From assembly GCF_044324785.1 (NCBI RefSeq), contig NZ_CP172127.1: DNA of 64,000 nucleotides. One strand, 5' to 3'. Both the position numbers and the translations under genes were made by a program. The notes under the pieces were generated by a model that worked only from the letters and a program-made list of their open reading frames with translations, searched no databases and was not told the origin of the DNA. Position 1 is the first letter of the stretch; each line of letters opens with the position of its first letter. Source of the DNA: Escherichia coli. Its GTDB lineage: Bacteria > Pseudomonadota > Gammaproteobacteria > Enterobacterales > Enterobacteriaceae. This document shows positions 18,607-49,680 of the stretch, in pieces.

Positions 18607-18821
18607 ACTTTTCTCCCCCTTTTGTATCTACCCGGTGAGGTGAATGGCACCGGAAAAATGAATTTGTTTATCTGATGAAAATAGTACCGCCTTTTGTGTA
18701 ATTTTACTACTCATCCGACCACTTATTTTTGCTTATTGATGGTTTATTTACATTCACCGTGTAATTAAGTTACACAAAAGTTAAATTAATACTAACCATC
18801 AGTTAAATCATGGCTTTTGCC

Positions 18822-18845
18822 ATTTTTATACTTTTTTTACATCCC
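18822..18845 (+). promoter_or_regulatory. KdpE operator of the kdpFABC promoter
   Basis: CATTTTTATACTTTTTTTACATCCCGCCCG matches the T-rich KdpE-binding region as I recall it, about 80 bp upstream of kdpF. Confidence 0.55.
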
Positions 18846-18923
18846 GCCCGAAGATTTTTGCGAAATCTTTGCAGCCAGAATTCTACCCTTCCGGTATCAC
18901 TTTTAGGCCACTGGAGGTGCACT

Positions 18924-19013
18924 GTGAGTGCAGGCGTGATAGCCGGCGTGTTGCTGGTGTTTTTATTACTGGGTTATCTGGTTTATGCCCTGATCAATGC
19001 GGAGGCGTTCTGA
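18924..19013 (+). CDS. kdpF: K+-transporting ATPase small subunit KdpF
   Basis: 29-aa hydrophobic peptide (M)[28 protein letters not shown]; GTG start 6 nt after GGAGG; stop TGA overlaps kdpA ATG. Confidence 0.75.
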
Positions 19014-20686
19014 TGGCTGCGCAAGGGTTCTTACTGATTGCCACGTTTTTACTGGTGTTAATGGTGCTGGCACGTCCTTTAGGCAGCGGGCTGGCGCGGC
19101 TGATTAATGACATACCTCTTCCCGGTACAGCGGGTGTTGAACGCGTACTTTTTCGTTTACCTGGCGTCTCTGACAGTGAGATGAACTGGAAGCAGTATCT
19201 CTGTGCCATTCTCGGCCTGAACATGCTGGGGCTGGCGGTGCTGTTTTTTATGTTGCTCGGTCAGCACTATCTGCCGCTTAATCCACAGCAGTTGCCGGGG
19301 CTGTCGTGGGATCTGGCGCTGAATACTGCCGTCAGCTTTGTCACCAATACCAACTGGCAATCTTACAGCGGTGAAACCACGTTGAGCTATTTCAGCCAGA
19401 TGGCGGGCTTAACGGTGCAAAACTTTCTTTCTGCCGCCAGCGGGATTGCGGTGATTTTTGCCCTCATCCGTGCGTTTACCCGCCAGAGCATGAGCACACT
19501 CGGGAATGCCTGGGTCGATCTGTTACGCATCACGTTATGGGTGCTAGTCCCTGTGGCGTTGTTGATCGCACTGTTTTTTATTCAACAAGGTGCACTGCAA
19601 AACTTTCTGCCCTATCAGGCGGTGAATACCGTTGAAGGAGCGCAACAGCTGTTACCCATGGGTCCGGTGGCTTCTCAGGAAGCGATCAAGATGCTCGGTA
19701 CTAACGGCGGTGGCTTCTTTAATGCCAACTCGTCGCATCCGTTTGAAAACCCAACCGCACTGACCAACTTCGTGCAGATGCTGGCGATCTTCTTGATCCC
19801 AACAGCGCTGTGCTTTGCCTTTGGTGAAGTGGCAGGCGATCGCCGCCAGGGGCGCATGTTGCTGTGGGCGATGTCAGTGATTTTTGTCATCTGCGTAGGC
19901 GTGGTGATGTGGGCAGAAGTTCAGGGTAATCCTCATCTGCTGGCACTGGGTGCGGACAGCAGCATCAATATGGAAGGTAAAGAGAGCCGTTTCGGCGTGT
20001 TGGTCAGTAGCCTGTTTGCGGTCGTGACTACGGCGGCGTCCTGTGGCGCGGTGATTGCGATGCATGATTCGTTTACCGCTCTCGGCGGCATGGTGCCGAT
20101 GTGGCTGATGCAAATTGGTGAAGTGGTGTTCGGCGGTGTCGGTTCTGGTCTTTACGGCATGATGCTGTTTGTCCTGCTGGCGGTGTTTATTGCCGGGCTG
20201 ATGATTGGTCGTACGCCGGAATATCTGGGTAAAAAAATCGACGTACGCGAGATGAAACTGACCGCACTGGCGATTCTGGTCACCCCGACGCTAGTGCTGA
20301 TGGGCGCGGCGCTGGCAATGATGACCGACGCCGGACGTAGCGCCATGCTCAACCCGGGCCCGCATGGTTTTAGCGAAGTGCTGTACGCCGTGTCGTCCGC
20401 CGCTAACAACAACGGCAGCGCCTTTGCCGGATTAAGCGCCAACTCCCCATTCTGGAACTGTTTGCTGGCGTTCTGCATGTTTGTTGGTCGCTTCGGGGTG
20501 ATTATTCCGGTGATGGCAATTGCTGGTTCGCTGGTGAGTAAAAAGAGCCAACCCGCCAGCTCCGGCACACTGCCTACGCACGGCCCGCTGTTTGTTGGCC
20601 TGTTAATCGGCACCGTGTTGCTGGTTGGCGCACTGACCTTTATCCCTGCCCTGGCGCTTGGTCCGGTGGCGGAATATCTCTCCTGA
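19013..20686 (+). CDS. kdpA: K+-transporting ATPase subunit A
   Basis: Start [14 protein letters not shown] within ORF 18869..20686; 557 aa. Confidence 0.95.
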
Positions 20687-46598: not shown

Positions 46599-48023
46599 AT
46601 GACCAAAAAACTCCATATTAAAACCTGGGGCTGTCAGATGAACGAGTACGATTCATCGAAGATGGCCGATCTGCTGGATGCCACCCACGGCTATCAACTG
46701 ACCGACGTGGCGGAAGAAGCGGATGTGCTGCTGCTGAACACCTGCTCAATCCGCGAGAAGGCTCAGGAAAAAGTCTTCCATCAGTTGGGTCGCTGGAAAC
46801 TGTTAAAAGAGAAGAATCCAGACCTGATTATCGGTGTCGGCGGCTGCGTGGCATCGCAAGAAGGCGAGCACATTCGCCAGCGCGCCCACTATGTCGATAT
46901 TATTTTTGGGCCGCAAACGCTGCACCGTCTGCCGGAGATGATCAACTCCGTGCGCGGCGACCGCAGCCCGGTTGTAGATATCAGCTTCCCGGAAATCGAG
47001 AAGTTTGACCGTCTACCGGAACCGCGCGCCGAAGGGCCGACCGCGTTTGTCTCCATCATGGAAGGCTGCAATAAATATTGTACCTACTGCGTGGTGCCTT
47101 ACACCCGTGGTGAAGAGGTAAGCCGTCCGTCTGACGATATTCTGTTTGAGATTGCCCAGCTTGCGGCTCAGGGCGTGCGTGAAGTCAACCTGCTCGGTCA
47201 GAACGTGAACGCCTGGCGTGGTGAAAACTACGACGGCACCACCGGAACGTTTGCCGATCTGCTGCGTCTGGTTGCGGCGATCGACGGGATCGATCGTATT
47301 CGCTTTACCACCAGCCATCCGATCGAATTCACCGACGATATCATCGAAGTGTACCGCGACACGCCGGAGCTGGTGAGTTTCCTGCATCTGCCGGTACAGA
47401 GCGGTTCCGATCGCATTCTGAACCTGATGGGACGTACCCATACAGCGCTGGAGTACAAAGCGATCATCCGTAAACTGCGTGCGGCGCGTCCGGATATTCA
47501 GATCAGTTCTGACTTCATCGTTGGCTTCCCTGGCGAAACCACCGAAGACTTCGAGAAAACGATGAAGCTGATTGCCGACGTCAATTTCGACATGAGCTAC
47601 AGCTTTATCTTCTCTGCACGTCCGGGTACGCCAGCCGCCGATATGGTTGATGATGTTCCGGAAGAAGAGAAGAAGCAGCGTCTGTATATTCTGCAAGAAC
47701 GTATTAATCAGCAAGCGATGGCATGGAGCCGCCGGATGCTCGGCACCACCCAGCGTATTCTGGTAGAAGGTACATCGCGTAAGAGCATCATGGAGCTTTC
47801 CGGTCGCACTGAAAATAACCGCGTGGTCAACTTTGAAGGCACGCCAGATATGATCGGTAAATTCGTCGATGTAGAAATTACCGACGTCTACCCGAACTCT
47901 CTGCGCGGTAAAGTGGTGCGTACTGAAGATGAAATGGGTCTGCGCGTGGCAGAAACACCCGAATCGGTGATTGCCCGTACCCGCAAAGAAAACGACCTTG
48001 GCGTGGGTTATTATCAGCCGTAA
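46599..48023 (+). CDS. miaB: tRNA-i6A37 methylthiotransferase (radical SAM)
   Basis: 474-aa ORF with radical-SAM CxxxCxxC (CNKYCTYC) and TRAM domain. Confidence 0.95.
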
Positions 48024-48175
48024 TTCTCAGGCCTGCCGTTCCGGTGGGCCTTGTTTTTTCTCTCTTTATCCCCATCTTTATCGCAATGCTTGCGCCTTTT
48101 TCCTGTGGCGTGAATAATTTCCTTATAGGCCGGTGAATGTTCAGCTTCCGGCGGCATACAGATAAGAGGAACGGT

Positions 48176-49216
48176 TTGAACATAGACACTCGCGAAATCA
48201 CTCTGGAGCCAGCAGACAACGCACGTCTGTTGAGCCTGTGCGGCCCGTTTGATGACAACATCAAACAACTCGAACGCCGTCTCGGCATCGAGATCAATCG
48301 CCGCGATAACCACTTTAAACTGACCGGCCGTCCGATTTGCGTCACCGCTGCGGCAGACATTCTGCGTAGCCTGTATGTCGATACTGCCCCGATGCGCGGT
48401 CAGATTCAGGATATTGAACCGGAACAGATCCACCTTGCGATTAAAGAAGCGCGAGTACTGGAGCAAAGCGCGGAGAGCGTGCCGGAGTACGGCAAAGCGG
48501 TCAATATCAAAACCAAACGCGGCGTAATCAAGCCGCGCACGCCAAACCAGGCGCAGTACATTGCCAATATTCTCGACCATGACATCACCTTCGGCGTTGG
48601 CCCGGCGGGTACGGGTAAAACCTACCTGGCAGTGGCTGCGGCAGTTGATGCCCTGGAGCGTCAGGAAATTCGCCGTATTCTGCTGACTCGTCCGGCGGTC
48701 GAAGCCGGTGAGAAACTGGGCTTCCTGCCTGGCGATTTAAGCCAGAAAGTAGACCCGTATCTGCGCCCACTGTACGACGCGCTGTTTGAAATGCTGGGCT
48801 TTGAGAAAGTCGAGAAACTGATTGAGCGCAACGTTATTGAAGTCGCGCCGCTGGCCTATATGCGTGGTCGTACGCTGAACGACGCGTTTATCATTCTCGA
48901 TGAGAGCCAGAACACCACCATCGAACAGATGAAGATGTTCCTGACCCGTATCGGTTTTAACTCAAAAGCGGTTATCACCGGCGACGTCACACAGATCGAC
49001 CTGCCGCGTAATACCAAGTCAGGCTTGCGTCACGCCATCGAAGTGCTGGCCGATGTTGAAGAGATCAGCTTTAACTTCTTCCACAGCGAAGACGTGGTTC
49101 GTCACCCGGTGGTGGCGCGTATCGTTAACGCTTATGAAGCCTGGGAAGAAGCAGAACAAAAACGTAAAGCGGCGCTGGCAGCAGAACGCAAGCGCGAAGA
49201 ACAGGAACAAAAATGA
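48176..49216 (+). CDS. ybeZ: PhoH-like ATPase
   Basis: ORF 48137..49216; likely TTG start at 48176 ([11 protein letters not shown]) 7 nt after AAGAGGA gives 346 aa; Walker A GPAGTGKT. Confidence 0.85.
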
Positions 49217-49680
49217 GTCAGGTGATCCTCGATTTACAACTGGCATGTGAAGATAATTCCGGGTTACCGGAAGAGAGCCAGTTTCAAACATGGCTGAATG
49301 CGGTGATCCCGCAGTTTCAGGAGGAATCGGAAGTGACGATTCGCGTGGTCGATACCGCCGAAAGCCACAGTCTGAATCTGACCTATCGCGGTAAGGATAA
49401 GCCGACCAACGTGCTCTCCTTCCCGTTTGAAGTGCCGCCTGGAATGGAGATGTCGCTACTGGGCGATCTGGTTATCTGCCGTCAGGTGGTTGAGAAGGAA
49501 GCACAGGAGCAAGGCAAACCACTGGAGGCGCACTGGGCGCATATGGTGGTGCACGGCAGTCTGCATTTGTTAGGTTACGATCACATCGAAGATGACGAAG
49601 CAGAAGAAATGGAAGCCCTCGAAACAGAGATTATGCTTGCTCTGGGCTATGAGGATCCGTACATTGCCGAGAAAGAATAA
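49213..49680 (+). CDS. ybeY: Endoribonuclease YbeY (rRNA maturation factor)
   Basis: 155-aa ORF with HxxxH...H metal motif ([11 protein letters not shown]); ATGA overlap with ybeZ. Confidence 0.95.

Follow-up and report, generated by a model that had tools for sequence, protein, structure and literature searches.

Translation initiation sites of Escherichia coli K-12 have been mapped by tetracycline-inhibited ribosome profiling (TetRP) together with COFRADIC N-terminomics (Nakahigashi et al. 2016; PMC4909307), and the main text of that study covers N-terminal proteomics and the comparison with the re-annotated genome U00096.3. Among the genes with revised starts in the TetRP data are yliA and ftsH, both assigned a TTG codon. 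As in ybeZ, older annotation had chosen an upstream or longest-ORF ATG, while the ribosome was found on a nearby NTG codon preceded by a Shine-Dalgarno (SD) sequence. The ybeZ start had been corrected in U00096.3 by 2014, whereas the TTG start of ftsH had not (PMC4909307). The closest described counterpart of the locus analysed here is K-12 ybeZ itself (b0660/ECK0652; WP_001018040.1), with the same protein, TTG codon, SD sequence and operon order. We examined ybeZ in a 64,000-nucleotide stretch of E. coli DNA, referred to below as the window. Over positions 48083-48201 the window is identical, base for base, to a K-12-type genome, and the K-12 experiments therefore apply directly to it.

Two candidate start codons for ybeZ lie in the same frame, 39 nt (13 codons) apart: ATG at 48137-48139 and TTG at 48176-48178. 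An in-frame stop codon stands immediately 5′ of the ATG, so that the frame has no further upstream extension and the ATG is the most upstream start possible. The features of the coding region are as follows.

48134-48136, + strand: in-frame TGA stop (codon −14), which closes the frame upstream
48137-48139, + strand: upstream in-frame ATG, the K-12 start annotated in 2006 (359 aa) and unused (TetRP 0/0/0; found in 7/80 species; no well-placed SD sequence)
48164-48170, + strand: SD sequence AAGAGGA (sequence, conservation, anti-SD duplex of −7.2 kcal/mol)
48176-48178, + strand: TTG initiation codon of ybeZ (RefSeq CDS start; TetRP peak and N-terminal peptide entry; TTG in 73/80 species)
48176-49216, + strand: ybeZ coding sequence, a 346-aa PhoH-like ATPase (ORF, RefSeq, PF02562)
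49213-49216, + strand: ATGA overlap of the ybeZ stop and ybeY start codons (ORF and RefSeq CDS coordinates)

From the TTG to the stop codon at 49214-49216 the reading frame measures 1041 nt including the stop and encodes 346 aa, which is the length of RefSeq WP_001018040.1 and the one that an earlier note on this DNA had given for YbeZ; from the ATG the product would have 359 aa. RefSeq places the start of the ybeZ CDS at the TTG (locus position 1777, corresponding to window position 48176), and it does so in the closest genome as well as in a K-12-type O16:H48 genome.

The earlier note preferred the TTG on the strength of an AAGAGGA motif 7 nt upstream. The motif is where it was said to be, but the spacer that separates it from the TTG (ACGGT) is 5 nt long, or 6 nt when counted from the GAGG core; the discrepancy is trivial, and the spacing lies within the usual functional range. 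AAGAGGA thus supplies SD complementarity at the distance of about 5-9 nt upstream expected for initiation at UUG. With positions sampled across the whole window as background, the strongest anti-SD pairing 5′ of the TTG (−7.2 kcal/mol) ranked in the top 2.5%. The best duplex upstream of the ATG reached −4.8 kcal/mol, a value that 16% of the background positions also attained, and its pairing (GGUGA) abuts the ATG without usable spacing, which agrees with the earlier assertion that this codon lacks a convincing ribosome binding site. A weak AGG does lie 7 nt 5′ of the ATG. SD strength favours the TTG over the ATG.

Both experiments that the earlier note had proposed as checks, profiling of initiating ribosomes and N-terminal proteomics, were already in print. 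In Table S2 of the 2016 study, row 7 lists ybeZ (ECK0652) with a new initiation site at 692601, a shift of +39 nt and the start codon TTG (PMC4909307). The TetRP signal in three samples was 79.0, 79.3 and 45.2 at the TTG vs 0, 0 and 0 at the ATG of 2006; these figures are the values of the published table rather than raw read tracks (PMC4909307). In K-12 this TTG is the one site around the 5′ end of ybeZ with an initiating-ribosome footprint, and the sequence there is identical to that of the window. The same row carries the entry “'N'-peptide found: 1. new annotation”, and its column for a second initiation candidate is empty (PMC4909307). The site agrees with the 2014 re-annotation of K-12, U00096.3 (New_2014_diff of 0), and Table S3 has 691561-692640 for the CDS of 2006 (ATG, 359 aa) and 691561-692601 for the CDS after revision (PMC4909307). 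The TTG start of ybeZ is accordingly a known one, present in GenBank U00096.3 since 2014 and in RefSeq and supported experimentally since 2016, and nothing in it is new. The gene is not mentioned in the TRAINSPOTTER N-terminomics supplements or in the supplements of Giess 2017, and a literature search on the ybeZ start codon, TTG and transcription start returned nothing that addressed the start beyond the Nakahigashi 2016 data.

These data bear directly on the older reading, in which ATG 48137 is the sole start and the protein has 359 aa, as in the 2006 K-12 annotation (U00096.2). That reading has the commonest start codon and the longest ORF on its side, it stood as the annotated start until 2014, and the weak AGG 7 nt upstream of the ATG is in its favour. 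Against it, the TetRP signal at the ATG was zero in all three samples and the published table flags an N-terminal peptide for the TTG start, so that, as far as published data can do so, the ATG as sole start is refuted. We consider the chance that it is correct negligible. The argument from the peptide has one limit. The N-terminal tryptic peptide of the long form would be MFSFR, which at five residues is probably undetectable by mass spectrometry; thus it is the TetRP zero, and not the missing long-form peptide, that argues against the ATG.

A second alternative is dual initiation, in which the TTG is the main start and the ATG gives rise to a minor isoform of 359 aa, for example during heat shock, on a longer sigma32 transcript. 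Both data sets, TetRP and N-terminomics, describe a single strain grown under standard conditions (minimal or LB medium), whereas the sigma32 transcript dominates during heat shock. A long-form MFSFR peptide would also escape mass spectrometry, and the ATG is retained in Escherichia, some Citrobacter and Kluyvera. This retention is explained equally well by the position of the ATG in the loop of a conserved hairpin, described below. The empty column for a second initiation candidate, the TetRP values of 0/0/0 at the ATG, the absence of a usable SD sequence there and the lack of conservation of the extension as a peptide all weigh against a second start, and we regard a minor long isoform as very improbable.

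The comparison across species was made with a scan of species-representative genomes that yielded 80 loci spanning the Enterobacterales; species-level counts refer to 79 loci together with the window. In 73 of the 80 species a TTG aligns with the codon at 48176. The other seven, with a non-start codon at this position, all belong to the Morganellaceae (Xenorhabdus, Photorhabdus, Proteus, Moellerella and one MAG). About 70 of the 80 species have a GAGG/AGGA or AAGG/AGGA core at a spacing of 5-6. Within the 73 TTG species conservation is 97-99% in the AGGA core (−9 to −6) and 77-99% over −11 to −6, and the TTG itself is invariant (100%). Given this conservation, the arrangement of SD sequence and TTG is more than a product of chance. 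From the TTG onward, conservation in the same 73 species is 3-periodic, with values of about 0.85-1.0 at codon positions 1 and 2 and about 0.4-0.6 at position 3. Upstream of the SD sequence the per-position conservation is flat and low and shows no 3-periodicity. The in-frame NTG that opens the conserved frame is thus TTG 48176, the exact point at which codon-periodic conservation begins. All 22 differences between the ybeZ genes of the window and of the K-12-type genome are likewise synonymous changes at codon position 3 of the TTG frame.

The upstream ATG presents a different picture. An ATG occurs at codon −13 in only 7 of the 80 species, namely Escherichia (2 species), three Citrobacter and two Kluyvera. 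It is absent from the other 73, and 36 of those have an in-frame stop codon between the two positions. Counted upstream from the TTG position, an in-frame stop lies within 12 codons in 36/80 species and within 7 codons in 27, which excludes an equivalent of the 13-codon extension in those 36. Even among ATG-bearing species the 13-residue peptide encoded between ATG and TTG drifts (MFSFRRHTDKRNG, MFSVRRDMLKRNS, MLVFRQLTHKRNS), while the protein proper is at least 95% identical. Between Escherichia and Kluyvera 7 of the 13 residues match, 3 of them encoded by the SD sequence, vs 95% identity for the protein. The conserved KRN of the extension is simply the translation of the SD sequence. The absence of coding-type conservation over these 39 nt, together with the phylogenetic distribution of the codon, also counts against the ATG as sole start.

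It might also be argued that the TTG call arose from annotation pipelines that copied one another, the true start being farther downstream. PGAP does propagate protein clusters, so that uniform annotation is not independent evidence. The footprint and the peptide entry are, however, experimental and independent of annotation. Moreover, residues 2-15 are conserved and show codon periodicity that begins at the second codon, and the next in-frame ATG lies about 85 codons in, so that a start there would delete the conserved N-terminal region. Of the readings considered here, a downstream start is the one to which we give the least credence, and its probability is vanishingly small.

We conclude, with near certainty, that ybeZ is translated from UUG 48176 by ordinary SD-directed initiation, as the earlier note had proposed in setting the TTG above the ATG; RefSeq, the TetRP footprint, the N-terminal peptide flag and the 80-species comparison agree on this codon. 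In the mechanism that we favour, the anti-SD sequence of the 30S subunit would pair with AAGAGGA (48164-48170), which would place the UUG 5 nt downstream in the P site, and fMet-tRNA would read the UUG as Met to begin the 346-aa protein. AUG 48137 is a recent, lineage-restricted accident in a variable non-coding spacer of the 5′ UTR and recruits no initiating ribosomes. We infer that it is ignored because it has no properly spaced SD sequence, lies in a hairpin loop and is a recent, lineage-restricted triplet. The correct N-terminus matters for cloning, tagging or modelling YbeZ and otherwise means little beyond annotation hygiene, although ybeZ does make a clean textbook case in which longest-ORF or first-ATG rules fail.

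The start region of ybeZ belongs to an intergenic stretch that follows miaB (46599-48023). We aligned this region from 23 Enterobacteriaceae species (alignment A1) and recognised the following elements.

48029-48059, + strand: intrinsic terminator of miaB, a hairpin at 48029-48051 followed by a T-run (terminator scan; compensatory changes keep the hairpin in the 23-species alignment)
48050-48077, + strand: sigma32-type promoter-like element, CTTGTTT (48050-48056), 13 nt and CCCCATCT (48070-48077) (conservation in A1)
48089-48118, + strand: near-invariant block GCTTGCGCC...GTGAATAAT, which can be read as a promoter of the sigma70/sigmaS type with TTGCGC (48090-48095), 17 nt and AATAAT (48113-48118)
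48129-48152, + strand: small hairpin, GCCGG (48129-48133) and CCGGC (48148-48152) around a 14-nt loop that holds TGA-ATG (MFE and centroid folds)

In A1 the order of elements is the miaB terminator hairpin, the CTTG-N-CCCCATNT element, the GCTTGCGCC...GTGAATAAT block, a variable spacer with the ATG and an invariant AAGAGGA..TTG. The spacer varies in both length and sequence, and its indels are not multiples of three. In the sigma32-type element the columns of CTTG and CC..A..T show little or no variation, and the element presumably matches the sigma32 promoter consensus. ChIP places ybeZ among the sigma32 targets, with a position that maps to about 48042 in the window, and sigma32 control of ybeZ is credited to Nonaka 2006. 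Columns of the 48089-48118 block are at least 90% conserved among the 23 Enterobacteriaceae species. SELEX with the RpoS holoenzyme gave a peak in the miaB-ybeZ interval that maps to about 48109, and Reg-Seq reported one new repressor site in the ybeZ promoter, whose regulator was not named. A scan with the sigma70 consensus called no promoter in the ybeZ leader; the 48089-48118 block was not called because its putative −35 matches at only 3/6 positions. We infer that ybeZ is probably transcribed from two promoters, one of the sigma32 type and one of the sigma70/sigmaS type. As a separate observation, GCTTGCGCC...GGCGTGAATAATTT (48089-48118) is more conserved than would be expected of a plain promoter with so weak a −35.

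Escherichia, Citrobacter and Kluyvera all conserve the stem arms GCCGG/CCGGC of the small hairpin, whereas its loop varies. A structured regulatory leader was considered as the cause of the silent ATG and rejected, since the leader as a whole folds no more stably than shuffled sequences (z = +1.31). A search of the leader against Rfam gave no family match and a single sub-threshold match, on the miaB terminator.

YbeZ is a partner of the rRNA-maturation RNase YbeY. From the ORFs and RefSeq, the order of genes is miaB followed by ybeZ-ybeY-corC(ybeX)-lnt. The ATGA overlap makes translational coupling of ybeZ (ATPase) and ybeY (RNase) probable. The PhoH P-loop NTPase domain (PF02562, E = 1.2e-98, profile positions 2-205 of 205) covers residues 118-321 of the 346-aa form, and the protein matches structure 3B85 (E = 6e-80). 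This structure, the only solved relative, is of the C-terminal domain, and the NCBIfam models that match cover the PhoH domain only and are silent on the N-terminus.

An ATG at the start of ybeZ was found in none of the 80 Enterobacterales species sampled. All 80 genes appear, from their sequences, to begin at a codon other than ATG: it is TTG in 73, and in the 7 Morganellaceae an upstream GTG is the sole candidate. In the 73 species the first T of the TTG is never A or G, while neighbouring synonymous sites are saturated. It is conceivable, though rather unlikely in our estimation, that the weak UUG is itself selected, so as to throttle or condition the synthesis of YbeZ. Were this so, the UUG might determine the ratio of YbeZ to YbeY by way of the ATGA-coupled junction, or it might render initiation responsive to IF3 or to temperature while the sigma32 response is under way.

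The Morganellaceae loci (L070, L074, L076, L078, L079, L081 and L082, at about 830-860 in L070 and at about 1480-1510 in the others) carry TCA, CCA, TCG or GCA in place of the TTG and have lost the SD sequence. Their only start candidate is an in-frame GTG 5-6 codons upstream, inside a CAGTGA motif that is also present in Yersinia, Pantoea and Erwinia. This looks like migration of the start to another non-ATG codon. In Shimwellia pseudoproteus (L031, about 1445-1500) three to four SD-like copies (GTAAGAGGTCCCTGTAAGAGGTCACTGTAAGAGGTAAGAGGAATAGT) stand in tandem in the ybeZ leader, immediately 5′ of the TTG.

Within E. coli, the 601-nt region around the ybeZ start was found in 5424 of 5426 complete genomes. 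Positions 47900-49299 of the window are only about 98.3% identical to most E. coli, with identity of at least 99% in 39 of 5424 genomes; the YbeZ sequence is identical. The most divergent E. coli match (H12) is uninformative on the start, since its annotation marks miaB and ybeZ alike as frameshifted, probably through assembly errors.

The earlier note had likened ybeZ to kdpF, also in the window, for which it deduced a GTG start. This start holds: the GTG at 18924 follows GGAGG (18913-18917) with a 6-nt spacer and is the RefSeq start of a 29-aa protein. Like ybeZ, kdpF has an annotated non-ATG start behind a strong SD sequence; unlike ybeZ, it uses GTG, encodes a 29-aa membrane peptide and has no competing upstream in-frame ATG in its short open frame. 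The TGA stop codon of kdpF (19011-19013) overlaps the ATG of kdpA (19013-19015) as TGATG. KdpF of the window has Ala (GVIAGV) at a position where K-12 KdpF has Thr (GVITGV). Among the complete E. coli assemblies, one copy each of 47900-48500 and 18800-19100 lies on a record typed as a plasmid; a chromid, integration of a large segment or mis-typing of the replicon could account for this.
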